Source: Nitrosopumilus sp. (lineage in GTDB: Archaea > Thermoproteota > Nitrososphaeria > Nitrososphaerales > Nitrosopumilaceae). Taken from it: a DNA stretch of 64,000 nucleotides. The stretch is from positions 2,112,001-2,176,000 of the forward strand of contig OZ252243.1 in NCBI GenBank assembly GCA_965249555.1. The letters are read 5' to 3'. Position 1 is the stretch's first letter, and each line of letters opens with the position of its first letter. The notes beneath the pieces are model-generated. The model worked only from the letters and a program-made list of their open reading frames with translations. It did not search any database and was not told the origin of the DNA. Made by a program: the position numbers and the translations under genes. Positions 23,676 through 42,755 of the stretch are shown here, piece by piece.

Positions 23676-24121
23676 TGTACTATTCTCACAAAGTCTGCCA
23701 TGAATCTTCCAAGGTCCTCTGTATTGCAGTAGTCATTTGATCCGCCCGTATAGTCCTCAAAGTTTTCAGCAGTTCTGATCAGGAAACATTTGTCCCATCT
23801 GAGATCACCAATGCTGAAATAATAGATGTTTCCATTTCTTATCTCAAAGAATCCGTGTTGATCAAAGTGGTTTGGTTTTGCTATCTCTATCTTTGTTATC
23901 TCGAAATTATCATGCAATAATTTCGTGAACTGTTTTTTGAAGACTTTGCAGAATGTCAAGTATTGTGTGGTTATTGAACTTGATGACTTGTATTCTGCAT
24001 TTAGGAGAGCAAACCAATTCTTTGATGCTTCCTTGAAATTATCTTCCTTGATTGCACCTAGCTTGTCTTGCAACTCTCTTATCTGTTGCTCTATCTCTAT
24101 TTGTTGGACCATTCGGTTCAA
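23672..24121 (-). CDS. Hypothetical protein (first gene after repeat R1; likely start ATG of MVQQ)
   Basis: PNHFD.HGFF, YFSIGDLR, DYTGGSN; SD-like AGGAGG upstream. Confidence 0.65.
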   Translation of the reverse strand: MNRMVQQIEIEQQIRELQDKLGAIKEDNFKEASKNWFALLNAEYKSSSSITTQYLTFCKVFKKQFTKLLHDNFEITKIEIAKPNHFDQHGFFEIRNGNIYYFSIGDLRWDKCFLIRTAENFEDYTGGSNDYCNTEDLGRFMADFVRIVQ

Positions 24122-24342
24122 CCTCCTATTTCTGAAATAACGTTTCCAGTGGTACGATTCCTGTATGTGAAGTTACTTTCTGGGCATCTCTTTGAGATAT
24201 CATATTTGCAACTTCAAGGAATAATTTTCATTGAAACCGTCTGTGATTTCAATTATACAATCTCACACCCATCCGCTGAGTCGGTTCTGAAATTATATCT
24301 CAGAATAAAACGGGTTTGGATGATATGGCTCAGTCAAAAAAA
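24101..24342 (-). promoter_or_regulatory. ~240-bp conserved structured upstream repeat R1 (T-tract, pseudoknot-like core, hairpins, SD, first codons)
   Basis: Full copies also at 25729-25969, 32282-32515, 34105-34338, 35782-36015, 37393-37629, 38370-38611, 39950-40186, 40927-41168, 42507-42739. Confidence 0.85.
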
Positions 24343-24354
24343 GATGCTGTATGT

Positions 24355-24819
24355 CTACAGCTTGTCTTCGATTTTCTTTAAGATACCTGTCATATCTTTG
24401 AGAGAATTTGATGTCTCTTTCTGAGATGATGCTATCTCTTTGAGAGAATTTGATGTCTCTTTCTGAGATGATGCTGTCTCTTTCTGAGATGATGCTATCT
24501 CTTTGAGAATTCCAGATATCTCTATATGGTTTTCTTTGAGAATTTTTGTATGGCTCTCAAGGATTTCATTTTGCTCGTTGAATCGCCTGTACAGCTTGTG
24601 TGCCACATCTCTTGTTGCAAGCATCATATAGACACCTACGACGCCGGCAATAATAAAGGCAGCTCCCAAGGCAATCAGCATTTCATTATATGGGGGCGTG
24701 ATTCCAAGTGCCAGAATACCTGCTCCCAGACACATTATAACAAACAACCAGTGGTTGCCTTTTGTGGTATCTTGTATTTGGGATGAAATCCTTCTTATCT
24801 GGTTTTTGGTATCTACCAC
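24355..24819 (-). CDS. Two-TM protein with heptad-repeat coiled-coil tail (family M1)
   Basis: TM pair, then SSQKE(I/T)A/SNSLKEI 21-bp repeats; 6 paralogs in window. Confidence 0.75.
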   Translation of the reverse strand: MVDTKNQIRRISSQIQDTTKGNHWLFVIMCLGAGILALGITPPYNEMLIALGAAFIIAGVVGVYMMLATRDVAHKLYRRFNEQNEILESHTKILKENHIEISGILKEIASSQKETASSQKETSNSLKEIASSQKETSNSLKDMTGILKKIEDKL

Positions 24820-24893
24820 TTGTAATTTTTATCTCCGTTGTTATCCCACATTATCCCAGTCATGTGTCTCATCTGTATGCTCCTCTTAAAAAA

Positions 24894-25127
24894 CTAAGAG
24901 GCATGTACAAGCTCTGATTCTGCAGATAGTTTCTGCAACATTTTTACTGCAATGACATGCGAGCATTCACCTCGAAACTTGAATCCCATACATTCGCATA
25001 TCTCATCATTTATGATGTATGATCTTCCAGGAGTGGATGCGTTTACCTGGTAGGTATCATCATCAATCTGAATGATGCATTTTGTGTCTATGAGATTCTG
25101 TGCCTTTTTCTCCGTGAATTCAGACAT
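24894..25127 (-). CDS. SWIM zinc-finger protein
   Basis: CECMGFKFRGECSHVIAV. Confidence 0.75.
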   Translation of the reverse strand: MSEFTEKKAQNLIDTKCIIQIDDDTYQVNASTPGRSYIINDEICECMGFKFRGECSHVIAVKMLQKLSAESELVHAS

Positions 25128-25177
25128 TACCCACATTGGATGAAGACGTATCAAGGTGGATTTCTGTCGTATCACTC

Positions 25178-25540
25178 TCATAGAGTTGTATAATCTCCAT
25201 CACACACTCGGGTTTCTAATGTTGCTCCTGCAAACCAATTACTTTTAGTTAGTTCTTGCAGCTGCTGTCCTACCTTGTTTTCAGATACTCCAGATGCTGA
25301 TTTGGCAGACCATGTGATTCCAAGTTCTCTTTGTGTGTGTCCGCATTTCTCCGGTCCGTTGAATCTGATTTCAGTTGGAGCAATTGTCGGATAGTTCGTA
25401 CCCATTCCGTCTGCAAGAACTACTCCAAGATGTCTTAGTGGTGTTACCATCTTTTTGAAATCCGTTGCAACTTTTGAGAATTTTCCCGCATCAAACTCTG
25501 GTGATACGTAATAGTAGTGAGTGTAACCCATTAGTTGCAC
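25178..25540 (-). CDS. Hypothetical mobile-element protein (MGYTHY...IRFNG type)
   Basis: 120-aa ORF conserved in 6 copies. Confidence 0.6.
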   Translation of the reverse strand: MQLMGYTHYYYVSPEFDAGKFSKVATDFKKMVTPLRHLGVVLADGMGTNYPTIAPTEIRFNGPEKCGHTQRELGITWSAKSASGVSENKVGQQLQELTKSNWFAGATLETRVCDGDYTTL

Positions 25541-25749
25541 TCTACACAGTTACATGACACTGCATGCTGTTCTGGTAATGAGGAATAGTATGCTTCATTT
25601 ACAATCTTTTCCTCATGACACTGTTGCAGGATTTCAAGTTGTTCTGAACTCCACCCCATGCTAACTATACACTTTGTATGAGAGAGGGGATTTTGTGAAT
25701 TGATTTCTGTGCTCTCACTTGCACTGTTTTGTTGGACCATTCGGTTCAA
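25531..25749 (-). CDS. Small Cys/His protein (H...C.C..C)
   Basis: First gene after repeat; 6 copies. Confidence 0.6.
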   Translation of the reverse strand: MNRMVQQNSASESTEINSQNPLSHTKCIVSMGWSSEQLEILQQCHEEKIVNEAYYSSLPEQHAVSCNCVECN

Positions 25750-25969
25750 CCTCCTATTTCTGAAATAACGTTTCCAGTGGTACGATTCCTGTATGTGAAA
25801 TTACTTTTTGAGCATCTCTTTGAGATGTCATATTTGCAACTTCAAGGAATAATTTTCATTGAAACCGTCTGTGATTTCAATTATGTCATCTCACACCCGT
25901 CCACTGAGTCGGTTCTGAAACTATGTTTCAAAATAAAACGGGTTTGGATGGTATGGCTCAGTCAAAAAA
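25729..25969 (-). promoter_or_regulatory. Conserved upstream repeat R2
   Basis: Near-identical to R1. Confidence 0.85.
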
Positions 25970-25985
25970 TGTGGTGTTTGAAAAC

Positions 25986-26423
25986 TCAGTCTTTGCTTTG
26001 TAGAATGTCTTTTATCTCGTTCTGAGATTTTGCCATCTCGTTCTGAGATTTTGCCATCTCGTTCTGAGATTTTACTATCTCGTTCAGAGATTCTGTAATG
26101 GATTGCAATGCCTTTATGATACTTGTGCCAATATTCATGTTTTCTTTGCCGACATCATATATTGCCTCTTTGATACTTGTGCCAATATCCATCGTAGTCC
26201 AAGACATTAACATACCTACGAACCCAACTATAATAAAGGCTATGCCTTCACTTAGCAGTCGTTTGTCTGTCAGTTGGCTTGTGATGGTTAGGAATGACCC
26301 AACTACTACCATTGCCACAAATATCATGTTTTGACGTCGTGTAAGACTGGTTCTTATTCTGTCTGTGGTTATTTTTTCCATTTTCTTTTTTGTAATGCTG
26401 CAAGCATCATACCTTCTCCACAT
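25986..26423 (-). CDS. Two-TM protein with SQNEMAK heptad repeats (family M2; start probably downstream at MEKIT)
   Basis: Paralog of 42756-43433. Confidence 0.7.
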   Translation of the reverse strand: MWRRYDACSITKKKMEKITTDRIRTSLTRRQNMIFVAMVVVGSFLTITSQLTDKRLLSEGIAFIIVGFVGMLMSWTTMDIGTSIKEAIYDVGKENMNIGTSIIKALQSITESLNEIVKSQNEMAKSQNEMAKSQNEIKDILQSKD

Positions 26424-26482
26424 CCAATCTGCCTGTCAGGTGCATTTGCACTGATATTGGATTTGAGAGGATTGTCAGGTCA
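26415..26482 (-). promoter_or_regulatory. Short variant of the structured leader motif (also 27114-27180, 43425-43492)
   Basis: Covarying stems; lies directly upstream of genes. Confidence 0.7.
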
Positions 26483-26527
26483 CAAAAAAAGGATTGTATG
26501 GTGTAAAAATCACCATTTAACATTTGG

Positions 26528-27100
26528 TTATACCAAATATTTTGAGTGAGCCCTTAATTGCATGAAAGCACAGTGCAGAATGTTATACATTGTGTTCTGG
26601 TCTCGCGTGTGTTGGTTTGAGGATACATGTAAAAGAATGGCTTGTAGTGTTTCAACTTTCTCATTTCTTTCAAACTCCCACAAATGCCTGAGGTCGGCTT
26701 TGAACAGATTTCTATAAAATCCTTCACCATTATCAAGTGTCTGATGGGCAGTCTCTATGTTGTTAAAGTCACCAGTGTCCATATATCCAGACCTTTTGGT
26801 TATCCCATCTGACCTTGCAATGATAAATCTGTTAAAGTCTGTATCCGGCTCTAACTGATCCCATGCAAATGCCTCAAACACTTTTATCCCATATGAAAGA
26901 CTGGATTCATCCCCTACGATTATGTTATCATAGTTGTAGAATTTTCTTATCTCTTCCAGACTGGATTTGTCTGGTTTTGATCCTGTTGCTATTAGTATTT
27001 TCCCACATCTCAAAGTCAACTCATCTTTGTTAGATATGTCTCTTAATGTCAATACTAAATCAAGGTTCTCACTGTATTCTGATTTGTTCATTTTTTTCAC
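26528..27100 (-). CDS. Hypothetical protein
   Basis: 190-aa ORF downstream of leader motif. Confidence 0.65.
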   Translation of the reverse strand: MKKMNKSEYSENLDLVLTLRDISNKDELTLRCGKILIATGSKPDKSSLEEIRKFYNYDNIIVGDESSLSYGIKVFEAFAWDQLEPDTDFNRFIIARSDGITKRSGYMDTGDFNNIETAHQTLDNGEGFYRNLFKADLRHLWEFERNEKVETLQAILLHVSSNQHTRDQNTMYNILHCAFMQLRAHSKYLV

Positions 27101-27345
27101 TTTTTATCTTCCTTCTCCACACTTGCCTGCCTGTCAGGTACTTTCGTACTGTTGCAAGATTTGAGAGGATTGTCAGGTCAGTCCCTAGGATGTGCTGAAT
27201 TGTGGTCGCATACGCAAAGTAAACCCACAACTCAATACACCTTCGGGTATTATGGAGCCTTTCTGTCGTTGTAAGATGAGTTCTGCATCATTTGGGAGAT
27301 GTCATAACTTTATCTTTGTAATTGTTCCAAAGTCTTCAGTAGACA

Positions 27346-28152
27346 TTAGTTCTCTATCTCTATTGGCGGGTTTTCTTTAGTGATATTTTCAGCATCACTT
27401 AACATTGCAGTTATTGCCTTTTGTACTCTGCTGAGAACCTTAAAGCATGCCCGTCCAACTTCTTCTGGAGAGTCAGTTTTTGCATATGTTGCGATATAAT
27501 TCCAGGTGTAGTTTTCTGAATCATATCCGTACATCTTTGCAAGTACACAAGCTCCCAACTGTGCGACTGTTTCTTGTTCTGGGTCTTGTTTTAGCTTTAG
27601 TTTGATATTTTTGTTATCATACCAGTGAACTAATTCGTGTAGAAATGTATCAGGAGCTTCGGTACTCAGTACAATCTCTTTTCTTTTTGGATCAATTGAA
27701 CCGTATTCTCCATGACGTGTGTTTTCCCATTTCACATCAATTCCATTTTTTGCTGCCAAGTCAAACAACGGAGGCAGAACTTTTGGGGCATATTCTTGCA
27801 GAGGTTCACCTTCTGTATCCTCATATCGAAATACAGGCATTCCCCTGAATCCAATCACTATTGTTTTGTCCTCTTCATTTTTGTCTTTGATTCTTTTTTG
27901 CATTGGAATCAATATGTATATTGCCTTGGAACCTTTTTTGACATGTCTTCTTACCTGCTCCCACTGCCTGTATCCTCTTGCATCAGTTGTTCCAGAGAAG
28001 AGCATTAGTACTTGGTTTCCCAAAGACCATGAGGATGATGGAATTTCTTCTGCACTGATGAATGCCTTTGCACATGTTTCTGCAAACTCTTTGTTGGAAA
28101 AGTGTTCTACAATGTCATTTAGAATAGCTGTTGCCTTTTCAGAATTCTTCAT
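27346..28152 (-). CDS. ardC: ArdC-like protein (ssDNA-binding N-domain plus zincin-like domain), putative anti-restriction
   Basis: WSLGNQVLM..GYRQWEQVRRHVKKGSKAIYILIP, VFRYEDTEG, HELVH, ETVAQLGA. Confidence 0.8.
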   Translation of the reverse strand: MKNSEKATAILNDIVEHFSNKEFAETCAKAFISAEEIPSSSWSLGNQVLMLFSGTTDARGYRQWEQVRRHVKKGSKAIYILIPMQKRIKDKNEEDKTIVIGFRGMPVFRYEDTEGEPLQEYAPKVLPPLFDLAAKNGIDVKWENTRHGEYGSIDPKRKEIVLSTEAPDTFLHELVHWYDNKNIKLKLKQDPEQETVAQLGACVLAKMYGYDSENYTWNYIATYAKTDSPEEVGRACFKVLSRVQKAITAMLSDAENITKENPPIEIEN

Positions 28153-28478
28153 TGTGATGTGTATATTTGATAGCTTCGAATTGAAGACCGGCTGTTTGTG
28201 TTATGCTCTATGAGATTGTCTTTGAGATCATATCCTAGACTCTGATTCTGTTTTGCATTGCAAAACAAAGTAGCGTCACAATCTTCTTCAAGGTACACAT
28301 ATTTGTCGTTTGTGTAACTGTATTTTGAGATTTTCTCGGCAATTCCCAAGGACTCTAGTTCAGATTGTAAGACTTTGAGCCATCCGTGACTTTGGTCTGA
28401 AAAGAAATGGTACTTTTCGTTTGTTTCTATTACTTTTTGTTTCATGTTTTTCCTCCTTAAAGGGACCATCTCACACAT
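28149..28478 (-). CDS. Conserved phage/plasmid-type hypothetical protein
   Basis: DQSHGWLKV..LGI..IS.YSY..YLEEDCDA. Confidence 0.65.
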   Translation of the reverse strand: MCEMVPLRRKNMKQKVIETNEKYHFFSDQSHGWLKVLQSELESLGIAEKISKYSYTNDKYVYLEEDCDATLFCNAKQNQSLGYDLKDNLIEHNTNSRSSIRSYQIYTSQ

Positions 28479-28553
28479 CCGTTCTGCTGAGTCAGCTGGT
28501 ATTATTATACCAGGATAACGGAGTTGGAGTGGTAGTCTCAGTCAAGAAAAAAA
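28469..28553 (-). promoter_or_regulatory. Diverged core of the conserved upstream repeat
   Basis: GCTGAGTC..CTCAGTC retained; different inner hairpin CTGGTAT-TATT-ATACCAG. Confidence 0.7.
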
Positions 28554-28613: not shown

Positions 28614-29651
28614 TTATATTTTCTGACTCGCTGTTGGGACAGGAAGCGAGCTTGCAAAGGATTGTACTATATGCTGGTTCTTTTCTTTGTGGTCTTTTTT
28701 GGTTGGTAGATTACCATATTTGTAGTCCAGTCTCCTCAGTTCTGTACCGTCCCATTTCTTCTCAAGAGAGTCTGCCTTTCTTTTGTACACCTTGGACTGT
28801 CTTTTGGATGTATGATTCCATGAATCAATCATCTCTGCAGATAGGACTGGTGTTGTGTGGATGATGAATGCTTTTGTCTCTGCGTTGAACTGTCTGTCTT
28901 TGGCATCATCTGTTGGCTCTCGATTGTATTTTTTGAGAATCTCTAGTTTGTCAGAGTCTGTCAATGGTCTGTCTCCTTCACTGATTGCAGCAACAAAAAT
29001 CAGACTGCATGATAGTATGGGTCTGACCTGAACAGTCTTTACCTCATCACCGCTTGGAATTAATAGTAATTCCTCACTGTGTGTTTTTCCTGTTGTCTGT
29101 ATGGATGATATTCCAGATAACTTTGGAGTGATTCCGGTACTCTGGTATCTCCTTGGTCGGTGTGATAGAATTCTGTCAGTCCTTTCAGCTGCTCTGATGT
29201 CTTTTTTTGCAAATTCTATCTCCAGGAATTGCTCATCCCATGATGGTACGATACCAGTAGAGAATCTCTTTCTTTGTACAAGGTATCCTCCACAGACACA
29301 ACGAGTTATGTCTGCTGGTTGTTTCCAGGAATGGCATCTCTTGCAACAAGTTGCCTTTTCAGTTTTTATGGAATCCATGTCAACTGGCTGTACTTCCAAT
29401 GGATATGCTCCCTTGAATTTCTTCATTGGAATCTCAAATAAACAGAGTTTGCCGTCTTGAAGAACTGCTACTACACCCTCTTTGGCTCTGAATTGAATCA
29501 AAGCCTTGTTGGTACGGTCATATTTGACATGACCTCTGTACCCTTGGGATTCTAGTTTCTGCTCAAGGTAGTTCTTTACCAAAAGCAATTTTTGACTACT
29601 TGGTACATTTTTGATACTTGTACTGGTATTGTTTGAATTTTTGAAAACCAT
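28614..29651 (-). CDS. Unknown basic protein with Zn-finger-like CKRC..CVC (paralog of 44246-45289)
   Basis: 345-aa ORF, highly similar paralog in window. Confidence 0.8.
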   Translation of the reverse strand: MVFKNSNNTSTSIKNVPSSQKLLLVKNYLEQKLESQGYRGHVKYDRTNKALIQFRAKEGVVAVLQDGKLCLFEIPMKKFKGAYPLEVQPVDMDSIKTEKATCCKRCHSWKQPADITRCVCGGYLVQRKRFSTGIVPSWDEQFLEIEFAKKDIRAAERTDRILSHRPRRYQSTGITPKLSGISSIQTTGKTHSEELLLIPSGDEVKTVQVRPILSCSLIFVAAISEGDRPLTDSDKLEILKKYNREPTDDAKDRQFNAETKAFIIHTTPVLSAEMIDSWNHTSKRQSKVYKRKADSLEKKWDGTELRRLDYKYGNLPTKKDHKEKNQHIVQSFASSLPVPTASQKI

Positions 29652-29968
29652 TTGGCTTCATCTCCTTTTGCAAAAAACATACCGAAGTTGTAACATATGA
29701 TGTCTGGTTTCTAGTAGATGTTGTCATCCAGCTTAGCCTAGGCTAAGATTAAAAAAATACATGGATGTGATTGAATATCAATCTACTGTCTGTTATCTGA
29801 CAGACTGTGTTGCACTGAAAAAAGATTTCACGTGTCTGTAGTCTTTGTATGCTTTTGCTAGTTTGGTTGTATTTCTGTCAGATTTTATCCTGCCAGAACA
29901 GACGTCATTTCTGAAAATATCGTTTTTCATCTGGACGATTCTCATATGAGAATTTTTTTTACCAGTCG

Positions 29969-30050
29969 CACACCCATCCGCTGAGTCGGTTCTGAAACTG
30001 TGTTTCAAAATAAAATGGGTTTGGACTGTATGGCTCAGTCAAGAAAAAAA
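29969..30050 (-). promoter_or_regulatory. Core-only copy of conserved upstream repeat
   Basis: Direct sequence match. Confidence 0.8.
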
Positions 30051-30796: not shown

Positions 30797-30838
30797 GTCT
30801 TCTAGTTGAGTTATATTGATGAAATGATATGAGAATAG

Positions 30839-30906
30839 TGAGGGTCAGAACTTTTGCTGTCATCATTACTGATGTTCAGATCAACGCCGCTCTCATCATC
30901 CCCTCA
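30839..30906 (-). ncRNA. Box C/D-type guide sRNA, copy 1
   Basis: UGAGGG-G-AUGAUGA-GAGCGGCGUUGAU-CUGA-ACAUCAGUA-AUGAUGA-CAGCAAAAGUU-CUGA-CCCUCA. Confidence 0.85.
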
Positions 30907-31072
30907 TTATCAATCTAGAATGTTTTGAAATGTGTAAATTGGAGTTTTGTAGACTGCACTTGTACCCTCTGTCTGCTCCTCAACTGATGATATCATTCCG
31001 GGAATGTCTGCTGCAAGCAGTGCCGTAACACTTCTGGTTATGAGTTATATTGATGAAATGATATGAGAATAG

Positions 31073-31140
31073 TGAGGGTCAGAATATGGGGCTGTCATCA
31101 TTACTGATGTTCAGATCAACGCCGTTCTCATATCCCCTCA
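31073..31140 (-). ncRNA. Box C/D-type guide sRNA, copy 2 (C box has a 1-nt deletion)
   Basis: C box reads AUAUGA; D' guide GAACGGCGUUGAU; D guide CAGCCCCAUAUU. Confidence 0.7.
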
Positions 31141-31306
31141 TTATCAATCTAGAATGTTTTGAAATGTGTAAATTGGAGTTTTGTAGACTGCACTTGTACC
31201 CTCTGTCTGCTCCTCAACTGATGATATCATTCCGGGAATGTCTGCTGCAAGCAGTGCCGTAACACTTCTGGTTATGAGTTATATTGATGGAATGATATGA
31301 GAATAG

Positions 31307-31374
31307 TGAGGGTCAGAATATTGGCTGTCATCATTACTGATGTTCAGATCAACGCCGTTCTCATCATCCCCTCA
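31307..31374 (-). ncRNA. Box C/D-type guide sRNA, copy 3
   Basis: Perfect C, D', C', D boxes; D' guide GAACGGCGUUGAU; D guide CAGCCAAUAUU. Confidence 0.85.
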
Positions 31375-31540
31375 TTATCAATCTAGAATGTTTTGAAATG
31401 TGTAAATTGGAGTTTTGTAGACTGCACTTGTACCCTCTGTCTGCTCCTCAACTGATGATATCATTCCGGGAATGTCTGCTGCAAGCAGTGCCGTAACACT
31501 TCTGGTTATGAGTTATATTGATGGAATGATATGAGAATAG

Positions 31541-31608
31541 TGAGGGTCAGAACGGTTTTCTGTCATCATATTGATGTTCAGCTCAACGCCGCTCTCATCA
31601 TCCCCTCA
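31541..31608 (-). ncRNA. Box C/D-type guide sRNA, copy 4
   Basis: Perfect boxes; D' guide GAGCGGCGUUGAG; D guide CAGAAAACCGUU. Confidence 0.85.
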
Positions 31609-32179: not shown

Positions 32180-32285
32180 TTCTTTTCAGCCCTCATAAAG
32201 TGGCCTTGTGCATTGCTGTATAGCGCATCCCCTGGAATGACAAACTGTAGTCCGGTCTTTTTTAGGGACTGATTGATGGCGCCAT
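32173..32285 (-). pseudogene. 3' remnant of a second ParM-like actin gene
   Basis: Manual translation GAINQSLKKTGLQFVIPGDALYSNAQGHFMRAEKNC* aligns with the ParM C-terminus VRIAKNPVYSNALGMLKKASKH. Confidence 0.6.
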
Positions 32286-32515
32286 TCGGTTCAACCCCCT
32301 ATTTCTGAAATAACGTTTCCAGTAGTACAATTCCTGTATGTGAAATTACTTTTTGAACATCTCTTTGAGATATCCTGTTTGTAATTCCTAGGAATAATTT
32401 TCATTGAAACCGTTTGTGATTTCAATTATGTCATCTCACACCCATCCGCTGAGTCGGTTCTGAAACTATGTTTCAAAATAAAACGGGTTTGGATGGTATG
32501 GCTCAGTCAAAAAAA
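32282..32515 (-). promoter_or_regulatory. Conserved upstream repeat
   Basis: Near-identical to R1. Confidence 0.85.
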
Positions 32516-32527
32516 GATGCTGTATGT

Positions 32528-33046
32528 CTACAGCTTGTCTTCTATTCTCTTTAAGATACTTGTCATATCTTTGAGAGAATTTGATGTCTCTTTCTGAGAT
32601 GATGCTGTCTCTTTCTGAGATGATGCTATCTCTTTGAGAGAATTTGATGTCTCTTTCTGAGATGATGCTATCTCTTTGAGAGAATTTGATGTCTCTTTCT
32701 GAGATGATGCTATCTCTTTGAGAATTCCAGATGTCTCTATATGGTTTTCTTTGAGAATTTTTGTATGGCTCTCAAGGATTTCATTTTGCTCGTTGAATCG
32801 CCTGTACAGCTTGTGTGCCACATCTCTTGTTGCAAGCATCATATAGACACCTACGACGCCGGCAATAATAAAGGCAGCTCCCAAGGCAATCAGCATTTCA
32901 TTATATGGGGCGTGATTCCAAGTGCCAGAATACCTGCTCCCAGACACATTATAACAAACAACCAGTGGTTGCCTTTTGTGGTATCTTGTATTTGGGATGA
33001 AATCCTTCTTATCTGGTTTTTGATATCTACCACTTGTAATTTTCAT
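32528..33046 (-). pseudogene. Family M1 membrane protein, 1-bp frameshift
   Basis: G4 at 32907-32910 versus G5 in the other five copies. Confidence 0.65.
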
Positions 33047-33257: not shown

Positions 33258-33278
33258 CTGTATGCTCCTCTTAAAAAA

Positions 33279-33925: not shown

Positions 33926-34125
33926 TCTACACAGTTACATGACACTGCATGCTGTTCTGGTAATGAGGAATAGTATGCTTCATTTGCAATCTTTTCCTCA
34001 TGACATTGTTGTAGGATTTCAAGTTGTTCTGAACTCCATCCCATGCTAACTATACACTTTGTATGAGAGAGGGGATTTTGTTGTACATTTTTGATACTTG
34101 TATATTGTTGGACCATTCGGTTCAA
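33916..34125 (-). CDS. Small Cys/His protein
   Basis: Paralog of 25531-25749. Confidence 0.6.
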   Translation of the reverse strand: MNRMVQQYTSIKNVQQNPLSHTKCIVSMGWSSEQLEILQQCHEEKIANEAYYSSLPEQHAVSCNCVECN

Positions 34126-34350
34126 CCTCCTATTTCTGAAATAACGTTTCCAGTGGTACGATTCCTGTATGTGAAGTTACTTTTTGAGCATCTCTTTGAG
34201 ATGTCATATTTGTAACTTCAAGGAATTTGAAACCGTTTGTGATTTCAATTATACAATCTCACACCCGTCCGCTGAGTCGGTTCTGAAACTATGTTTCAAA
34301 ATAAAACGGGTTTGGATGGTATGGCTCAGTCAAAAAAAGATGCTGTATGT

Positions 34351-34878
34351 CTACAGCTTGTCTTCTATTCTCTTTAAGATACCTGTCATATCTTTGAGAG
34401 AATTTGATGTCTCTTTCTGAGATGATGCTGTCTCTTTCTGAGATGATGCTATCTCTTTGAGAGAATTTGATGTCTCTTTCTGAGATGATGCTATCTCTTT
34501 CTGAGATGATGCTATCTCTTTGAGAGAATTTGATGTCTCTTTCTGAGATGATGCTATCTCTTTGAGAATTCCAGATGTCTCTATATGGTTTTCTTTGAGA
34601 ATTTTTGTATGGCTCTCAAGGATTTCATTTTGCTCGTTGAATCGCCTGTACAGCTTGTGTGCCACATCTCTTGTTGCAAGCATCATATAGACACCTACGA
34701 CGCCGGCAATAATAAAGGCAGCTCCCAAGGCAATCAGCATTTCATTATATGGGGGCGTGATTCCAAGTGCCAGAATACCTGCTCCCAGACACATTATAAC
34801 AAACAACCAGTGGTTGCCTTTTGTGGTATCTTGTATTTGGGATGAAATCCTTCTTATCTGGTTTTTGATATCTACCAC
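34351..34878 (-). CDS. Family M1 membrane/coiled-coil protein (175 aa)
   Basis: Longest heptad tract. Confidence 0.75.
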   Translation of the reverse strand: MVDIKNQIRRISSQIQDTTKGNHWLFVIMCLGAGILALGITPPYNEMLIALGAAFIIAGVVGVYMMLATRDVAHKLYRRFNEQNEILESHTKILKENHIETSGILKEIASSQKETSNSLKEIASSQKEIASSQKETSNSLKEIASSQKETASSQKETSNSLKDMTGILKRIEDKL

Positions 34879-35602: not shown

Positions 35603-35802
35603 TCTACACAGTTACATGACACTGCATGCTGTTCTGGTAATGAGGAATAGTATGCTTCATTTGCAATCTTTTCCTCATGACATTGTTGTAGGATTTCAAG
35701 TTGTTCTGAACTCCATCCCATGCTAACTATACACTTTGTATGAGAGAGGGGATTTTGTTGTACATTTTTGATACTTGTATATTGTTGGACCATTCGGTTC
35801 AA
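35593..35802 (-). CDS. Small Cys/His protein
   Basis: Paralog. Confidence 0.6.
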   Translation of the reverse strand: MNRMVQQYTSIKNVQQNPLSHTKCIVSMGWSSEQLEILQQCHEEKIANEAYYSSLPEQHAVSCNCVECN

Positions 35803-36027
35803 CCTCCTATTTCTGAAATAACGTTTCCAGTGGTACGATTCCTGTATGTGAAGTTACTTTTTGAGCATCTCTTTGAGATGTCATATTTGTAACTTCAAGG
35901 AATTTGAAACCGTTTGTGATTTCAATTATACAATCTCACACCCGTCCGCTGAGTCGGTTCTGAAACTATGTTTCAAAATAAAACGGGTTTGGATGGTATG
36001 GCTCAGTCAAAAAAAGATGCTGTATGT

Positions 36028-36492
36028 CTACAGCTTGTCTTCTATTCTCTTTAAGATACTTGTCATATCTTTGAGAGAATTTGATGTCTCTTTCTGAGAT
36101 GATGCTGTCTCTTTCTGAGATGATGCTATCTCTTTGAGAGAATTTGATGTCTCTTTCTGAGATGATGCTATCTCTTTGAGAATTCCAGATGTCTCTATAT
36201 GGTTTTCTTTGAGAATTTTTGTATGGCTCTCAAGGATTTCATTTTGCTCGTTGAATCGCCTGTACAGCTTGTGTGCCACATCTCTTGTTGCAAGCATCAT
36301 ATAGACACCTACGACGCCGGCAATAATAAAGGCAGCTCCCAAGGCAATCAGCATTTCATTATATGGGGGCGTGATTCCAAGTGCCAGAATACCTGCTCCC
36401 AGACACATTATAACAAACAACCAGTGGTTGCCTTTTGTGGTATCTTGTATTTGGGATGAAATCCTTCTTATCTGGTTTTTGGTATCTACCAC
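36028..36492 (-). CDS. Family M1 membrane/coiled-coil protein (154 aa)
   Basis: Paralog. Confidence 0.75.
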   Translation of the reverse strand: MVDTKNQIRRISSQIQDTTKGNHWLFVIMCLGAGILALGITPPYNEMLIALGAAFIIAGVVGVYMMLATRDVAHKLYRRFNEQNEILESHTKILKENHIETSGILKEIASSQKETSNSLKEIASSQKETASSQKETSNSLKDMTSILKRIEDKL

Positions 36493-36850: not shown

Positions 36851-37213
36851 TCATAGAGTTGTACAATCTCCATCACACACTCGGGTTTCTAATGTTGCTC
36901 CTGCAAACCAATTACTTTTAGTTAGTTCTTGCAGCTGCTGTCCTACCTTGTTTTCAGATACTCCAGATGCTGATTTGGCAGGCCATGTGATTCCAAGGTC
37001 TCTTTGTGTGTGTCCGCATTTCTCCAGTCCGTTGAATCTGATTTCAGTTGGAGTAATTGTCGGATAGTTCTCACCCATTCTGTCTGCAAGAACTACTCCA
37101 AGATGTCTTAGTGGTGTTACCATCTTTTTGAAACCCGTTGCAACTTTTGAGAATTTTTCCGCATCAAACTCTGGTGATACGTAATAGTAGTGAGTGTAAC
37201 CCATTAGTTGCAC
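36851..37213 (-). CDS. MGYTHY-type hypothetical protein
   Basis: Paralog. Confidence 0.6.
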   Translation of the reverse strand: MQLMGYTHYYYVSPEFDAEKFSKVATGFKKMVTPLRHLGVVLADRMGENYPTITPTEIRFNGLEKCGHTQRDLGITWPAKSASGVSENKVGQQLQELTKSNWFAGATLETRVCDGDCTTL

Positions 37214-37413
37214 TCTACACAGTTACATGACACTGCATACTGTTCTGGTAATGAGGAATAGTATGCTTCATTTGCAATCTTTTCCTCATGACACTGTTGC
37301 AGGATTTCAAGTTGTTCTGAACTCCACCCCATGCTAACTATACACTTTGTATGAGAGAAGGGATTTTGTTGTACATTTTTGATACTTGTATATTGTTGGA
37401 CCATTCGGTTCAA
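37204..37413 (-). CDS. Small Cys/His protein
   Basis: Paralog. Confidence 0.6.
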   Translation of the reverse strand: MNRMVQQYTSIKNVQQNPFSHTKCIVSMGWSSEQLEILQQCHEEKIANEAYYSSLPEQYAVSCNCVECN

Positions 37414-37633
37414 CCTCCTATTTCTGAAATAACGTTTCCAGTGGTACGATTCCTGTATGTGAAGTTACTTTTTGAGCATCTCTTTGAGATGTCATATTTG
37501 TAACTTCAAGGAATAATGTTGAAAATCTATCTTGATTTTCCAATCCATCTCACATCCATCCGCTGAATCGGTTCTGAAACTATGTTTCAAAATAAAACGG
37601 GTTTGGATGGTATGGCTCAGTCAAAAAAATATT

Positions 37634-37849
37634 TCAGATCTGTTGTAGAAGATCTTCTTTTGAGATTTCAGCTTGCTCCAGGATTAGTTTCAAGGTGGAT
37701 TCTCTGATTGGAGAATGCCTGGGTACTGGAACAATATTGCCATCTTTGTTTTGAAGTATGATGTGGCTTCCTCTTTGTCTATTTACAGAATACCCAAATT
37801 TGCTTAATGCCTTTATGACATCACGCCAATTGTGGTTTCTTAGACTCAA
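37634..37849 (-). CDS. hicA: HicA-family toxin
   Basis: VIKALSKFGY..RQRGSHIIL..VPVPRH..TLKLIL. Confidence 0.9.
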   Translation of the reverse strand: MSLRNHNWRDVIKALSKFGYSVNRQRGSHIILQNKDGNIVPVPRHSPIRESTLKLILEQAEISKEDLLQQI

Positions 37850-38064
37850 TTTGGAATCTCTACAATTATTTTCTGATCTGGTTTTGCTTTTTCTTTAATG
37901 GACTCTAGAACCAGAGAAATGACTTCTTTCATGTTTGATTCTAGCTGCTCCATTGTATCTCCTTCACTAATTGCTGCAGGTAATTCAAGGCATCGTCCTG
38001 TGTATCCACCTTCTGATGATTTGATTACCTGGATAGTGAACTTTCTTGTGTCCATGCTTTTCAT
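37846..38064 (-). CDS. hicB: HicB-family antitoxin
   Basis: EGGYTGRCLELPAAISEGDTMEQLESNMKEVI. Confidence 0.9.
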   Translation of the reverse strand: MKSMDTRKFTIQVIKSSEGGYTGRCLELPAAISEGDTMEQLESNMKEVISLVLESIKEKAKPDQKIIVEIPN

Positions 38065-38094: not shown

Positions 38095-38298
38095 TTAGGA
38101 ATCAAGAATTTTGTTCAATTCCTGCCTTATCTTTTTGAGCGTCTTTTTGTGCTTTCTCTGCCTGATATGATCCTGTGCAACCCCTAGGCTCTTGCATGCA
38201 TCAGACCATTCTCCTCGCTTTTCACATTCCAGGTTTCTTCCTGTGAATTCCCAATCCTCACAGTTCCAGTCAGAGACTGAGATTGAATATTCTGTCAT
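38095..38298 (-). CDS. Small hypothetical protein
   Basis: 67-aa ORF, duplicated at 40652-40855. Confidence 0.55.
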   Translation of the reverse strand: MTEYSISVSDWNCEDWEFTGRNLECEKRGEWSDACKSLGVAQDHIRQRKHKKTLKKIRQELNKILDS

Positions 38299-38623
38299 TA
38301 GTATTCAACCTCTACTGTACCCTTTGTATGAAAGACGTGATTTTGTCGTACATTTTTGATACTTGTATATTGTTGGACCATTCGGTTCAACCTCCTATTC
38401 CTGAAATAACGTTTCCAGTAGTACGATTCCTGTATGTGAAATTACTTTCAGAACATCTCTTTGAGATATCCTGTTTGTAACTTCAAGGAATAATTTTCAT
38501 TGAAACCGTCTGTGATTTCAATTATGTCATCTCACATCCATCCGCTGAGTCGGTTCTGAAACTATGTTTCAAAATAAAATGGGTTTGGATGGTATGGCTC
38601 AGTCAAAAAAAGATGCTGTATGT

Positions 38624-39357: not shown

Positions 39358-39407
39358 TGCCCACATTGGATGAAGACGTATCAAGGCGGATTTCTGTCGT
39401 ATCACTC

Positions 39408-39770
39408 TCATAGAGTTGTACAATCTCCATCACACACTCGGGTTTCTAATGTTGCTCCTGCAAACCAATTACTTTTAGTTAGTTCTTGCAGCTGCTGTCC
39501 TACCTTGTTTTCAGATACTCCAGATGCTGATTTGGCAGGCCATGTGATTCCAAGGTCTCTTTGTGTGTGTCCGCATTTCTCCAGTCCGTTGAATCTGATT
39601 TCAGTTGGAGTAATTGTCGGATAGTTCTCACCCATTCTGTCTGCAAGAACTACTCCAAGATGTCTTAGTGGTGTTACCATCTTTTTGAAACCCGTTGCAA
39701 CTTTTGAGAATTTTTCCGCATCAAACTCTGGTGATACGTAATAGTAGTGAGTGTAACCCATTAGTTGCAC
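39408..39770 (-). CDS. MGYTHY-type hypothetical protein
   Basis: Paralog. Confidence 0.6.
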   Translation of the reverse strand: MQLMGYTHYYYVSPEFDAEKFSKVATGFKKMVTPLRHLGVVLADRMGENYPTITPTEIRFNGLEKCGHTQRDLGITWPAKSASGVSENKVGQQLQELTKSNWFAGATLETRVCDGDCTTL

Positions 39771-39970
39771 TCTACACAGTTACATGACACTGCATACTGT
39801 TCTGGTAATGAGGAATAGTATGCTTCATTTGCAATCTTTTCCTCATGACACTGTTGCAGGATTTCAAGTTGTTCTGAACTCCACCCCATGCTAACTATAC
39901 ACTTTGTATGAGAGAAGGGATTTTGTTGTACATTTTTGATACTTGTATATTGTTGGACCATTCGGTTCAA
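39761..39970 (-). CDS. Small Cys/His protein
   Basis: Paralog. Confidence 0.6.
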   Translation of the reverse strand: MNRMVQQYTSIKNVQQNPFSHTKCIVSMGWSSEQLEILQQCHEEKIANEAYYSSLPEQYAVSCNCVECN

Positions 39971-40190
39971 CCTCCTATTTCTGAAATAACGTTTCCAGTG
40001 GTACGATTCCTGTATGTGAAGTTACTTTTTGAGCATCTCTTTGAGATGTCATATTTGTAACTTCAAGGAATAATGTTGAAAATCTATCTTGATTTTCCAA
40101 TCCATCTCACATCCATCCGCTGAATCGGTTCTGAAACTATGTTTCAAAATAAAACGGGTTTGGATGGTATGGCTCAGTCAAAAAAATATT

Positions 40191-40406
40191 TCAGATCTGT
40201 TGTAGAAGATCTTCTTTTGAGATTTCAGCTTGCTCCAGGATTAGTTTCAAGGTGGATTCTCTGATTGGAGAATGCCTGGGTACTGGAACAATATTGCCAT
40301 CTTTGTTTTGAAGTATGATGTGGCTTCCTCTTTGTCTATTTACAGAATACCCAAATTTGCTTAATGCCTTTATGACATCACGCCAATTGTGGTTTCTTAG
40401 ACTCAA
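40191..40406 (-). CDS. hicA: HicA-family toxin (copy 2)
   Basis: Same protein as 37634-37849. Confidence 0.9.
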   Translation of the reverse strand: MSLRNHNWRDVIKALSKFGYSVNRQRGSHIILQNKDGNIVPVPRHSPIRESTLKLILEQAEISKEDLLQQI

Positions 40407-40621
40407 TTTGGAATCTCTACAATTATTTTCTGATCTGGTTTTGCTTTTTCTTTAATGGACTCTAGAACCAGAGAAATGACTTCTTTCATGTTTGATTCTA
40501 GCTGCTCCATTGTATCTCCTTCACTAATTGCTGCAGGTAATTCAAGGCATCGTCCTGTGTATCCACCTTCTGATGATTTGATTACCTGGATAGTGAACTT
40601 TCTTGTGTCCATGCTTTTCAT
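40403..40621 (-). CDS. hicB: HicB-family antitoxin (copy 2)
   Basis: Same protein as 37846-38064. Confidence 0.9.
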   Translation of the reverse strand: MKSMDTRKFTIQVIKSSEGGYTGRCLELPAAISEGDTMEQLESNMKEVISLVLESIKEKAKPDQKIIVEIPN

Positions 40622-40651
40622 TTTCTTGCTGTTTTACATCCTAAAAAAAGA

Positions 40652-40855
40652 TTAGGAATCAAGAATTTTGTTCAATTCCTGCCTTATCTTTTTGAGCGTC
40701 TTTTTGTGCTTTCTCTGCCTGATATGATCCTGTGCAACCCCTAGGCTCTTGCATGCATCAGACCATTCTCCTCGCTTTTCACATTCCAGGTTTCTTCCTG
40801 TGAATTCCCAATCCTCACAGTTCCAGTCAGAGACTGAGATTGAATATTCTGTCAT
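40652..40855 (-). CDS. Small hypothetical protein
   Basis: Duplicate of 38095-38298. Confidence 0.55.
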   Translation of the reverse strand: MTEYSISVSDWNCEDWEFTGRNLECEKRGEWSDACKSLGVAQDHIRQRKHKKTLKKIRQELNKILDS

Positions 40856-41180
40856 TAGTATTCAACCTCTACTGTACCCTTTGTATGAAAGACGTGATTT
40901 TGTCGTACATTTTTGATACTTGTATATTGTTGGACCATTCGGTTCAACCTCCTATTCCTGAAATAACGTTTCCAGTAGTACGATTCCTGTATGTGAAATT
41001 ACTTTCAGAACATCTCTTTGAGATATCCTGTTTGTAACTTCAAGGAATAATTTTCATTGAAACCGTCTGTGATTTCAATTATGTCATCTCACATCCATCC
41101 GCTGAGTCGGTTCTGAAACTATGTTTCAAAATAAAATGGGTTTGGATGGTATGGCTCAGTCAAAAAAAGATGCTGTATGT

Positions 41181-41603
41181 CTACAGCTTGTCTTCTATTC
41201 TCTTTAAGATACTTGTCATATCTTTGAGAGAATTTGATGTTTCTTTCTGAGATGATGCTGTCTCTTTCTGAGATGATGCTATCTCTTTGAGAATTCCAGA
41301 TATCTCTATATGGTTTTCTTTGAGAATTTTTGTATGGCTCTCAAGGATTTCATTTTGCTCGTTGAATCGCCTGTACAGCTTGTGTGCCACATCTCTTGTT
41401 GCAAGCATCATATAGACACCTACGACGCCGGCAATAATAAAGGCAGCTCCCAAGGCAATCAGCATTTCATTATATGGGGGCGTGATTCCAAGTGCCAGAA
41501 TACCTGCTCCCAGACACATTATAACAAACAACCAGTGGTTGCCTTTTGTGGTATCTTGTATTTGGAATGAAATCCTTCTTATCTGGTTTTTGATATCTAC
41601 CAC
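41181..41603 (-). CDS. Family M1 membrane/coiled-coil protein (140 aa)
   Basis: Paralog. Confidence 0.75.
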   Translation of the reverse strand: MVDIKNQIRRISFQIQDTTKGNHWLFVIMCLGAGILALGITPPYNEMLIALGAAFIIAGVVGVYMMLATRDVAHKLYRRFNEQNEILESHTKILKENHIEISGILKEIASSQKETASSQKETSNSLKDMTSILKRIEDKL

Positions 41604-41680
41604 TTGTAATTTTCATCTCCGTTGTCTTTATCCCACATTATCCCAGTCATGTGTCTCATCTGTATGCTCCTCTTAAAAAA

Positions 41681-41914
41681 CTAAGAGACATGTACAAGCT
41701 CTGGTTCCTTGGACTGTTTCTGCAACATTTTTACTGCAATGACATGCGAGCATCCCCCTCGAAACTTGAATCCCATACATTCGCATATCTCATCATTTAT
41801 GATGTATGATCTTCCAGGAGTGGATGCGTTTACCTGGTAGGTATCATCATCAATCTGAATGATGCATTTTGTGTCTATGAGATTCTGTGCCTTTTTCTCT
41901 GTGAATTCAGACAT
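41681..41914 (-). CDS. SWIM zinc-finger protein
   Basis: Paralog. Confidence 0.75.
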   Translation of the reverse strand: MSEFTEKKAQNLIDTKCIIQIDDDTYQVNASTPGRSYIINDEICECMGFKFRGGCSHVIAVKMLQKQSKEPELVHVS

Positions 41915-41964
41915 TGCCCACATTGGATGAAGACGTATCAAGGCGGATTTCTGTCGTATCACTC

Positions 41965-42327
41965 TCATAGAGTTGTACAATCTCCATCACACACTCGGGT
42001 TTCTAATGTTGCTCCTGCAAACCAATTACTTTTAGTTAGTTCTTGCAGCTGCTGTCCTACCTTGTTTTCAGATACTCCAGATGCTGATTTGGCAGGCCAT
42101 GTGATTCCAAGTTCTCTTTGTGTGTGTCCGCATTTCTCCGGTCCGTTGAATCTGATTTCAGTTGGAGTAATTGTCGGATAGTTCTCACCCATTCTGTCTG
42201 CAAGAACTACTCCAAGATGTCTTAGTGGTGTTACCATCTTTTTGAAACCCGTTGCAACTTTTGAGAATTTTTCCGCATCAAACTCTGGTGATACGTAATA
42301 GTAGTGAGTGTAACCCATTAGTTGCAC
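41965..42327 (-). CDS. MGYTHY-type hypothetical protein
   Basis: Paralog. Confidence 0.6.
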   Translation of the reverse strand: MQLMGYTHYYYVSPEFDAEKFSKVATGFKKMVTPLRHLGVVLADRMGENYPTITPTEIRFNGPEKCGHTQRELGITWPAKSASGVSENKVGQQLQELTKSNWFAGATLETRVCDGDCTTL

Positions 42328-42527
42328 TCTACACAGTTACATGACACTGCATGCTGTTCTGATAATGAGGAACAGTATGCTTCATTTGCAATCTTTTCCT
42401 CATGACACTGTTGCAGGATTTCAAGTTGTTCTGAACTCCACCCCATGCTAACTATACACTTTGTATGAGAGAGGGGATTTTGTTGTACATTTTTGATACT
42501 TGTATATTGTTGGACCATTCGGTTCAA
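42318..42527 (-). CDS. Small Cys/His protein
   Basis: Paralog. Confidence 0.6.
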   Translation of the reverse strand: MNRMVQQYTSIKNVQQNPLSHTKCIVSMGWSSEQLEILQQCHEEKIANEAYCSSLSEQHAVSCNCVECN

Positions 42528-42755
42528 CCTCCTATTGCTGAAATAACGTTTCCAGTGGTACGATTCCTGTATGTGAAGTTACTTTTTGAGCATCTCTTTG
42601 AGATGTCATATTTGTAACTTCAAGGAATTTGAAACCGTTTGTGATTTCAATTATACAATCTCACACCCGTCCGCTGAGTCGGTTCTGAAACTATGTTTCA
42701 AAATAAAACGGGTTTGGATGGTATGGCTCAGTCAAAAAATGTGGTGTTTGAAAAC

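Follow-up and report, generated by a model that had tools for sequence, protein, structure and literature searches.

A direct repeat of ~240 nt on the minus strand of a 64-kb stretch of Nitrosopumilus DNA (contig OZ252243.1, 2.11-2.18 Mb of the genome; hereafter the window) is probably a family of modular, highly structured mRNA leaders that co-regulate heterologous cassettes and supply the homology for their duplication and reordering. The repeat is a real conserved element and new to Rfam, and the region that carries it is the accessory arm of a Nitrosopumilus integrative conjugative element (ICE). Ten full copies lie in the window, along with five that consist of the 5′ part alone, between 24.2 and 45.6 kb. 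The leader unit always stands directly before a start codon, and its copies mark the borders of duplicated, reordered cassettes. The 5′ domain also occurs by itself as a short form, ~10 nt before the Shine-Dalgarno (SD) sequence and ATG.

A repeat finder returned a 242-nt family (n = 10) and its 85-nt 5′ core (n = 11) between positions 24100 and 42747, and an unfiltered scan of the whole window with a covariance model of the 5′ part (R1) gave 15 matches between 24226 and 45622, all 15 on the minus strand. On that strand, the 5′ ends of the full copies lie at 24342, 25970, 32515, 34338, 36015, 37629, 38611, 40186, 41168, and 42740. When one copy was compared by BLAST with the complete, single-contig 2.23-Mb host genome, 11 of 11 matches fell inside the window and none outside it. 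The window copies are ~87-94% identical, and their alignment places a sharp left border at a tract of six to seven Ts and a right border 4 to ~20 codons past the ATG, which begins 9 nt after AGGAGG. From left to right, the order is T tract, a TTGAAA/TTTCAA hairpin, an ATTCCT-TGAAGTTAC..ATCTC-AAA-GAGAT..GTAACTTCA-AGGAAT hairpin, AGGAGG, and ATG GTC CAA CAA. These codons give MVQQ in nine of the 10 full copies, and the copy at 32515 reads MAPSISP. An initial annotation of this DNA had described just such a ~240-bp structured repeat, running from a T tract through these hairpins and AGGAGG to MVQQ codons in most copies, in a single orientation and with additional core-only copies; all of this holds, apart from its count of 11 full copies, which we revise to 10. 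The copies, with two features tied to them, are listed here (ORF, open reading frame; TM, transmembrane; MFE, minimum free energy), and P3 and the two modules are parts of the fold described below.

24098..24342, minus strand: long-form leader (T7, 5′ module, P3, 3′ module, AGGAGG, ATG+12), opening the 146-aa ORF 23672-24112
24346..24361, minus strand: terminator-like hairpin GCUGUA-GACA-UACAGC, which includes a stop codon, with AUC-U7, just before the leader
25726..25970, minus strand: long-form leader, opening unit A (69-aa Cys-rich, 120 aa, SWIM-like 95 aa, TM+repeat 154 aa)
26372..26488, minus strand: type II variant of the 5′ module, tail GACCUGACA, loop CUGACAGG (26 bits, E 0.004)
27346-28152, minus strand: ArdC-like gene (ArdcN 20.7 bits, below the 22.6 cut-off)
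28448..28550, minus strand: short-form leader (52.6 bits), then ~10 nt, AAGGAGG, and the ATG of a ~98-aa ORF, with the ArdC-like gene next
29931..30047, minus strand: 5′ module only (96.2 bits), then a different ~280-nt leader and the 345-aa gene 28614-29651
32271..32515, minus strand: long-form leader with GGGGG replacing GGAGG; its ATG opens 7 codons only
34102..34338, minus strand: long-form leader of a unit A copy (folded as RNA, MFE −64.1, z −4.99)
35779..36015, minus strand: long-form leader of a unit A copy
37390..37629, minus strand: long-form leader of a unit A copy, with P3 swapped for another hairpin (AAAAUC..GAUUUU)
38367..38611, minus strand: long-form leader of unit B (27-aa ORF, 67 aa, HicB 37846-38064, HicA 37634-37849)
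39947..40186, minus strand: long-form leader of a unit A copy
40924..41168, minus strand: long-form leader of the second unit B, 100% identical to the first
42504..42740, minus strand: long-form leader of the first unit A copy
43382..43498, minus strand: type II 5′ module before the TM+repeat gene 42756-43433, a weak match (19.7 bits, E 0.07)
45538..45622, minus strand: divergent short 5′ module at the head of the whole array (30.3 bits, E 5e-4)

The type II copy at 26372-26488 heads the TM+repeat gene 25986-26423, and the same variant stands before TM+repeat genes in four related loci (L002, L003, L024, and L036). The weaker type II copy, at 43382-43498, is near-identical in sequence to 26410-26491. 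The head copy, at 45538-45622, lies in a divergent intergenic region before the 347-aa gene 44246-45289, and a homologous arrangement occurs in locus L043.

The evidence that carries the main finding is the fold, which comprises at least seven short helices and a pseudoknot and keeps its pairing through compensatory changes across copies. In the 5′ domain (~90 nt), a long stem, P1, encloses a variable hairpin, P2, and a small hairpin, P2b, and the loop of P2b (ACUCAG) pairs with the 5′ tail (CUGAG) to form the pseudoknot. A further variable hairpin, P3, separates this from the 3′ domain (~125 nt). There, P4 is a three-part hairpin (P4a, UUCC:GGAA; P4b; and P4c, with a conserved CAAAG loop), P5 has a conserved ACGUUA loop, and P6, the last hairpin, takes its 5′ arm from the spacer after the SD and its 3′ arm from the G of AUG and codons 2-4. 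P6 covaries with codon 2 (GUC/GUU/GCA/GCU against ACC/AACC/UGCC/AGCC). Because the start codon and codons 2-4 build this hairpin, the conserved M-V/A-Q-Q would largely reflect a constraint on the RNA.

We defined the helices by hand on one window copy and counted pairs on MAFFT alignments that had not been fitted to the structure. In the 3′ module (P4a to P6), 85.8% of 1158 cells from 31 distinct sequences were paired vs. 33-48% with slid partners; 22 of the 38 pairs had changed on both sides, and there were 112 double-change cells vs. 24-49, a level reached by none of 500 shuffles. P1, P2b, and the pseudoknot, again on an unfitted alignment, were 92.8% paired vs. 28-41%, with double changes at 12 of 20 pairs. 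The pseudoknot alone was 95.7% paired vs. 21-53%. It is found in compensated form as CUGGG:CCCAG (G423 loci), CCGAG:CUCGG (another genus), and CCUG:CAGG (the type II class), and uncompensated single changes were also seen, in 9 of 62 cells at the second pair. P2 and P3 remain hairpins even though their sequence is entirely replaced between copies, and MFE folds of 20 diverged copies independently gave the same helices. A three-pair CGU:ACG contact between the P5 loop and upstream sequence is invariant and therefore uninformative on covariation. RNAalifold on the first full-length MAFFT alignment recovered the fold in part; the variable hairpins were misaligned there, so sub-alignments were used instead.

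Searching the 64 kb with Rfam 15 at the gathering threshold gave 0 matches (4227 families), and at E ≤ 10 a single copy drew eight, the best of which (E 1.5) was to an unrelated family. A topology like that of the hepatitis delta virus ribozyme was considered and dropped, as pairing in the tail does not begin until its third base and Rfam has no matching ribozyme. A sequence outside the unit recalls its tail: in the window (25971-25995 and 42741-42765, both minus strand) and at many related loci, several upstream genes end in ..AAAGACTGAG or ..AAAGACTAG (K-D-stop), so that the heptamer with which the leader opens (GACTGAG) is already present some 20-30 nt ahead of it. These gene ends may be coincidental, may be left over from recombination, or may offer the P2b loop another sequence to pair with.

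The carrier of the structure is best sought in the mRNA. In the helices of the unfitted alignments, 95 cells were G:U vs. 54 A:C, with ~20 for each other mismatch type, and the sense strand had the better fold in 22 of 32 copies (mean difference, 3.7 kcal/mol). This strand bias, together with the hairpin that takes in the SD and AUG and the existence of the short form, makes mRNA the most economical carrier. From its position and the SD/AUG hairpin, we infer that the leader is the 5′ untranslated part of an mRNA.

The translation signals set the leaders apart from their host. In the host genome (crude ORF set, first ATG), TTTAAA-type words peak 27-30 nt before ATGs, and AGGAGG stands before just 10 of 1387 long ORFs; the host seems to use mostly leaderless mRNAs and few SD sequences. 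Against that background, the perfect SD of the leaders stands out, and it is for the same reason that we regard the cassettes as one co-regulated set. Signals for transcription are less regular. Host-type TATA words show no preferred position relative to the leader, either inside it or upstream: no 10-nt bin has them in more than 6 of 63 contexts. At the head copy, the TATA-like ATTTTAAG lies ~30 nt upstream of the tail, and, to judge by this spacing, it would start an RNA just before the 5′ domain. A sigma-70 promoter scan gave 49 sites vs. 56.9 expected and thus no enrichment, with a bacterial model that is irrelevant to archaea.

On this basis, we propose the following working model. The T tract, often after a terminator-like hairpin, would close the preceding cassette and act as an insulator. 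The leader would then act in RNA, giving every cassette the same strong, SD-dependent, structure-gated start of translation and probably the same RNA stability or factor binding. With copies ~87-94% identical, cassettes could in addition be amplified, lost, and reordered by ordinary homologous recombination, and no dedicated recombinase would be needed. Transcription of a unit could begin at a non-canonical promoter read by the TATA-binding protein (TBP) paralogue of the element, or it could arrive by read-through from the head of the array; at internal units, the 5′ domain might also be handling terminators.

Several observations weigh against the mRNA-leader reading. Alignments fitted with R1 and its companion model R2 further support the fold, in that they gave 88.4% paired cells and 298 double-change cells with P2 and P3 counted (64 distinct sequences), and a second such count gave 89.8% and 194 (42 distinct sequences), but model-fitted alignments lean towards the structure. 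Cell counts in general overstate the number of independent events because many copies come from few genomes. The antisense strand folded better in 10 of the 32 copies, the energy gap between strands is modest, and the complementary strand of the copy at 34102-34338, folded as DNA, was far more stable than its shuffles (z −4.65). Because of that gap and that stability, folding alone separates RNA from single-stranded DNA poorly. The check proposed in the initial annotation, to fold the unit as both, therefore had a divided outcome, in that both fold well and the comparison does not discriminate sharply. A run of at least five Ts directly precedes the unit in 44 of 54 contexts, and the terminator-like hairpin at 24346 also occurs before the leaders at 32519, 34342, 36019, 38615, and 41172, which makes six minus-strand sites; in locus L004, it is compensated (ACUGUA..UACAGU). 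If termination at the T tract is efficient, then the 5′ domain would be in RNA only if transcription restarts within a few bases, and no host-type TATA has a fixed place in the 63 contexts.

The repeat is not peculiar to this genome. By BLAST, copies with 70-78% identity occur in other Nitrosopumilus species, and of 150 other Nitrosopumilus genomes searched with R1, 17 gave matches, each having 1-14 copies in clusters of one orientation. The richest of these (G236) carries 14, of which 13 share a strand and fall within 42 kb, and another (G327) has 13, which form two clusters on the same strand. When genomes were drawn evenly from the family, R1 matched 6 of 150, in 4 of 24 genera. VirB4, the TBP paralogue, and the leader array follow in the same order on one strand in the window, G009, G236, and G327, and in G377 and G036 the leader copies do not adjoin the VirB4 match. 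A 21-nt core pattern was found in 12 metagenome contigs and in 10 stretches of the species genomes, spread over four Nitrosopumilus assemblies and a 10-kb contig that binning had assigned to a Nitrospinales bacterium; an exact-match search of a viral contig collection gave none. The Nitrospinales-binned contig (loci L033 and L034) carries two long-form leaders and the same cargo families and has most likely been binned wrongly, being part of a Nitrosopumilus element.

How the cassettes relate is seen when the array is cut at the borders of the repeat and the pieces are compared. Six of them are copies of one 1.6-kb unit, 92-98% identical (unit A), each combining a 66-69-aa Cys-rich ORF with a 120-aa ORF, a SWIM-like ORF, and the gene of a membrane protein that has tandem heptad-like repeats. 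Two more are HicAB cassettes of 982 bp, 100% identical (unit B), with a 27-aa ORF, a 67-aa ORF, HicB, and HicA. Homology between unlike cassettes extends over 234-306 nt, that is, the leader. In the window, the leader ATG opens four kinds of ORF (66-69 aa, six times; 27 aa, twice; 146 aa and 7 aa, once each). To judge from these sequences, the window alone over-states cargo diversity and records recent amplification by recombination between leaders. Across all loci, the leader ATG opens 46 distinct ORFs, and the 28 with at least 40 aa fall into 13 clusters when the first 25 residues are removed. These include a 66-71-aa family (11), a 143-aa Zn-ribbon family (3), a 345-aa family (2), an ArdC-like protein (1), and proteins of 271, 195, 181, and 146 aa. 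The other 18 ORFs are short, at 6-31 aa, and two of these run off the end of their locus. Related elements draw on the same cargo families, in other orders and combinations.

These comparisons bear on much of the initial annotation. It had the repeat heading operons, and the repeat does so, strongly structured and fused to unrelated cargo across related elements. The different cargo that it saw fused behind the repeat is borne out among those elements (13 clusters) and less so in the window, where the cargo is mostly duplicated units. The suggested comparison of cassette order found a shared pool of cargo and an order that differs between related elements, and the idea of shuffling without an integrase agrees with the tandem amplification via repeats in the window, with no tyrosine recombinase nearby. 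An attempt to see rearrangement in read contigs from four DNA runs was less informative: contigs break at the repeats, and most joints, with sides of just 20-30 nt, are too short to use. One contig in run X5, from a related population (depth 11, side 92), joins 29999, in the 5′ module of the 345-aa cassette, to 24300, on the upstream side of another leader, with 19 other letters in the variable hairpin, which is a hint only of a different cassette upstream of the 345-aa gene with its breakpoint inside the leader.

The first genes behind the leader may preserve some of its history. The stretch after MVQQ (TS.SIKNVQ) resembles the N terminus of the 345/347-aa family, which suggests that the leader was once the head of that gene and later captured other genes at varying depths. 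The 66-71-aa Cys-rich product of the first gene is a candidate regulator. Many of the short leader ORFs encode a conserved 27-31-aa peptide (..TS.SI.NVQ..T.FY...TVEV.N; window 38298-38378, minus strand, and L003, L007, L037, and L047). This peptide resembles the N-terminal half of the 66-71-aa family and could be a micro-ORF or an upstream ORF. The 120-aa ORF of unit A (36851-37213 and its counterparts) has homologues of 187-547 aa elsewhere, and the window versions may be truncated or split.

Most of the cargo is without a recognisable family. HicA has a solid Pfam match (66 bits) and HicB a weak one, so that the HicAB call of the initial annotation is firm in one partner. An ArdC protein combines an N-terminal ArdcN domain, which binds single-stranded DNA, with a C-terminal metalloprotease domain that bears HExxH. 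The ArdC-like call of the initial annotation is below threshold and yet consistent: the gene at 27346-28152 has weak phmmer matches to the PDB ArdC entries 6sna and 6i89 (E 0.008 and 0.017) over residues 61-264, an HExxH motif is visible as HELVH, and a homologue is fused directly to a long-form leader in L033. SWIM likewise stays below threshold (E 0.034), and DUF2958 was not recovered, with no Pfam match at E ≤ 10 for any of 10 cargo proteins tested. The membrane proteins it named are there, on the basis of visible hydrophobic segments only. An SNase match is weak in the window and clear in a homologue in L043. Pfam at E ≤ 10 returned nothing for the 345-aa, 120-aa, 98-aa, and 92-aa proteins, longer cargo homologues from other loci gave no family either, and a search of the ESM Atlas with the 345-aa protein yielded no usable match. 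The proposed anti-defence regulon thus comes down to one weak ArdC-like protein. The TM+repeat proteins, one of which precedes most leaders in the window and in related loci, carry in-frame tandem repeats: units of 54 bp, five to six times, in a 225-aa protein (42875-43202), and KEIASSQ/KETSNSL units in the 3′ halves of 24355-24819, 32528-33046, 34351-34878, and 36028-36492. These paralogues differ in repeat number (140, 154, 172, and 175 aa).

We place the region in a conjugative element because VirB4-like, VirD4/TraG-like, and actin/ParM-like genes are found there, and the relevant genes, all identified with Pfam, are as follows.

45852-46961: actin/ParM-like gene
48411..49019, minus strand: element-encoded TBP paralogue (Pfam TBP 33.6 bits, cut-off 22.9)
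49996-52572, minus strand: VirD4/TraG-like ATPase gene
52590-54446, minus strand: VirB4-like ATPase gene

The conjugation module (49996..54446) lies upstream of the array and on the same strand, as are all genes of the array region, and the TBP paralogue sits between these ATPase genes of the type IV secretion system and the leaders. The paralogue is 29-48% identical to its matches in related genomes. A search of the host genome gave no TFIIB match near the window, and of its five Phage_integrase (PF00589) matches (0.19, 0.42, 0.56, 0.65, and 1.49 Mb), none is near, all being more than 600 kb away. No relaxase or oriT was identified in the window, and a scan for tRNA and tmRNA genes found none there.

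Other functions for the repeat can be weighed against this evidence. The RNA might act on transcription or processing, with the 5′ domain, made just after a T-tract terminator, re-arming RNA polymerase past the next terminators, or processing itself or guiding a nuclease so that the polycistronic transcript is cut at the T tract and keeps a protected 5′ end, which we think unlikely. Such a role would suit long unidirectional arrays punctuated by T tracts and terminator-like hairpins, whose internal copies have no recognisable host promoter and whose head copy follows a TATA-like box. It would also suit a 5′ domain that is more widely conserved (21 of 64 distinct matches are without the 3′ module), and the strand order of tail, P1-5′, hairpin, tail partner, and P1-3′ makes a nested pseudoknot topology. 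The put RNA of phage HK022 and EAR of Bacillus bring about processive read-through of terminators, but we know of no archaeal RNA of the antitermination or self-processing kind, and Rfam gave no ribozyme or antiterminator match even at E ≤ 10. Moreover, the domain is downstream of the terminator it would have to suppress and could act on later ones only. In its fullest and equally speculative version, the 5′ domain would be a new class of large pseudoknotted archaeal RNA for antitermination or self-processing at each T tract and, with the TBP paralogue, would turn a 20-40 kb establishment array into a single switchable programme. That would amount to an RNA-based archaeal counterpart of the zygotic induction of plasmid leading regions. 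A distinctly doubtful explanation at the DNA level is that the unit is a promoter/operator cassette like the conserved upstream (CUP) repeats of IncN plasmids, in which the blocks TTGACTGAG, CCAAACCC, and GACTCAGCGGATGGGTGTGAGAT are sites for the TBP paralogue or a repressor and RNA exists only past an internal start. In its favour, the element encodes a divergent TBP, syntenic with arrays in four genomes, and several blocks are nearly invariant in sequence. A terminator-like signal at the end of each cassette creates a need for a new start, and most copies have an AT-rich stretch (TTTTATTT) between P1 and P2. The main text of a survey of thaumarchaeal ICEs adds that TFIIB homologues are always present in them (Krupovic et al. 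2019, PMC6563490). Yet P1, P2, and the tail pseudoknot flank or precede any internal start and still covary, P2 and P3 survive complete change of sequence in a way that a protein site would not, the AT-rich stretch is lost in the GC-richer copies L005 and L026, and no host-type TATA has a fixed place in the 63 contexts.

A single-strand promoter like Frpo, the idea behind the initial annotation, would have the unit fold in the incoming single-stranded DNA and recruit the transcription machinery before the complementary strand is made. The setting is suggestive, with a conjugative element, a unidirectional array of small genes, an ArdC-like protein, and a toxin-antitoxin pair, and the unit folds well as single-stranded DNA (z −4.65). 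Bacterial leading regions, too, combine one-strand orientation with Frpo elements, as far as the text of PMC11541004 covers them. We nevertheless consider this promoter very improbable. The fold consists of many short helices and has no long stem that would rebuild a duplex TATA box and its TFIIB recognition element (BRE), there is no conserved TATA-like box at a fixed place in the 63 contexts, and the wobble pairs (G:U 95 vs. A:C 54) speak for the mRNA-sense strand, the opposite of the template strand in which an Frpo has to fold. P6, built of SD-proximal sequence and the start codon, is a feature of translation. In addition, the survey text describes no relaxases in thaumarchaeal ICEs and raises double-stranded DNA transfer (PMC6563490). 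Finally, the repeat might be a passive by-product, left without function by recent segmental duplication of an operon head or by a non-autonomous mobile repeat; in six of the 10 full copies, the cassette behind the leader is one and the same duplicated unit, and another pair of cassettes matches at 100%. This we find scarcely credible, and cross-species covariation contradicts it: copies at only 70-78% identity have been kept in other species and genera, where every helix shows compensatory changes, they keep one orientation directly before start codons, and they have no terminal inverted repeats and no association with a transposase.

The mRNA-leader reading sets the repeat beside several known systems and apart from each. 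CUP repeats carry the promoter and first codons of downstream ORFs and mediate recombination. In the leading region of pKM101/R46, they head different operons in one orientation and unite them into a regulon; here, 15 of 15 copies likewise share an orientation, each before a start codon. They serve as ArdK binding sites that regulate ardB, ardK, and repA, according to the part of PMC6289460 that deals with them. Unlike a CUP, which is a double-stranded promoter/operator for a repressor, the leader is conserved as a set of covarying helices, together with a pseudoknot and a hairpin at the start codon; it also differs in its archaeal host, in its 15 copies per element, and in that no promoter was recognised in the leader contexts. 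The Frpo/ssi elements of F-like and IncI plasmids are likewise non-coding and folded and precede early genes that form a one-way array (PMC11541004, in the part concerned with these elements), but Frpo is one long imperfect hairpin that rebuilds −35 and −10 boxes in the transferred template strand, and the leader has at least seven short helices that include the SD and AUG. Frpo/ssi elements are also placed in the leading region, beside the oriT of an element that a relaxase transfers as single-stranded DNA. The analogy with plasmid leading regions drawn in the initial annotation is therefore apt in design and architecture, and its mechanism is unproven, with no oriT or relaxase identified in the window.

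Closer in kind are structured cis-regulatory mRNA leaders, whether riboswitch-like or protein-binding, of which the traJ leader of F with FinP is an example. The present leader resembles them in its covariation, its overlap with the ribosome-binding site, and its conserved loops, which suggest that a ligand, a protein, or another RNA is bound, and it departs from them in being repeated 10-15 times per element before unrelated genes, with its own upstream T tract and two separable modules. Integron attC arrays are likewise unidirectional series of small, mostly unknown cassettes whose content varies, with a folded repeat conserved more in structure than in sequence; however, no IntI-type recombinase lies beside this array, and the repeat is 5′ of the cassette with an SD and ATG, in contrast to the single imperfect R/L-box hairpin that attC places at the 3′ end of promoterless cassettes. 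The element itself is of the size (tens of kb) and host phylum of the surveyed thaumarchaeal ICEs and, like them, has a VirB4/VirD4 pair and encodes a basal transcription factor. That factor is a TBP paralogue here, with no TFIIB near the window, in contrast to the TFIIB-ParB pairs that the survey text describes (PMC6563490). The words leader, promoter, TBP, and ArdC are absent from the main text of that survey, and a limited search of open-access text found no description of the repeat.

Very few structured cis-regulatory RNAs are known to us in Archaea, and none in mobile elements of Thaumarchaeota. The leader is large (~240 nt), covaries helix by helix, and reaches 14-15 copies per element, and it offers a handle on how archaeal conjugative elements organise and express their accessory genes, which is a little-known matter. 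As the unit stands at the 5′ end of every cassette, it can also serve as a search key in marine metagenomes for cargo that includes candidate anti-defence and establishment genes. It points to a route of cassette turnover that needs no integrase, and it suggests that the design of bacterial leading regions, with unidirectional cassettes, a common head, and strong translation signals, recurs here, apparently at the level of RNA.

Other features of the window lie beside the array. Just upstream of the head leader, at 45653-45753, is a composite inverted repeat with 14-nt perfect arms and 15-nt arms at 87%, ~42 nt apart. It is a candidate for a regulatory site or for one resembling a transfer origin; the inverted repeat at the equivalent place in L043 is a different one. 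Three tandem copies of a 234-bp unit, 85-98% identical and apparently non-coding, occupy 30807-31552 between an 88-aa ORF and the SNase-like gene. Genes for transposases of the IS66, IS4/5, DDE_3, and IS240 types occur here and there at 2.5-10 kb and 56-57 kb, and on either side of the element are very large surface proteins that have Ig-like, fn3, and HYR domains (15257-20971, minus strand; 61610-64000, minus strand; and 3-1790, plus strand).

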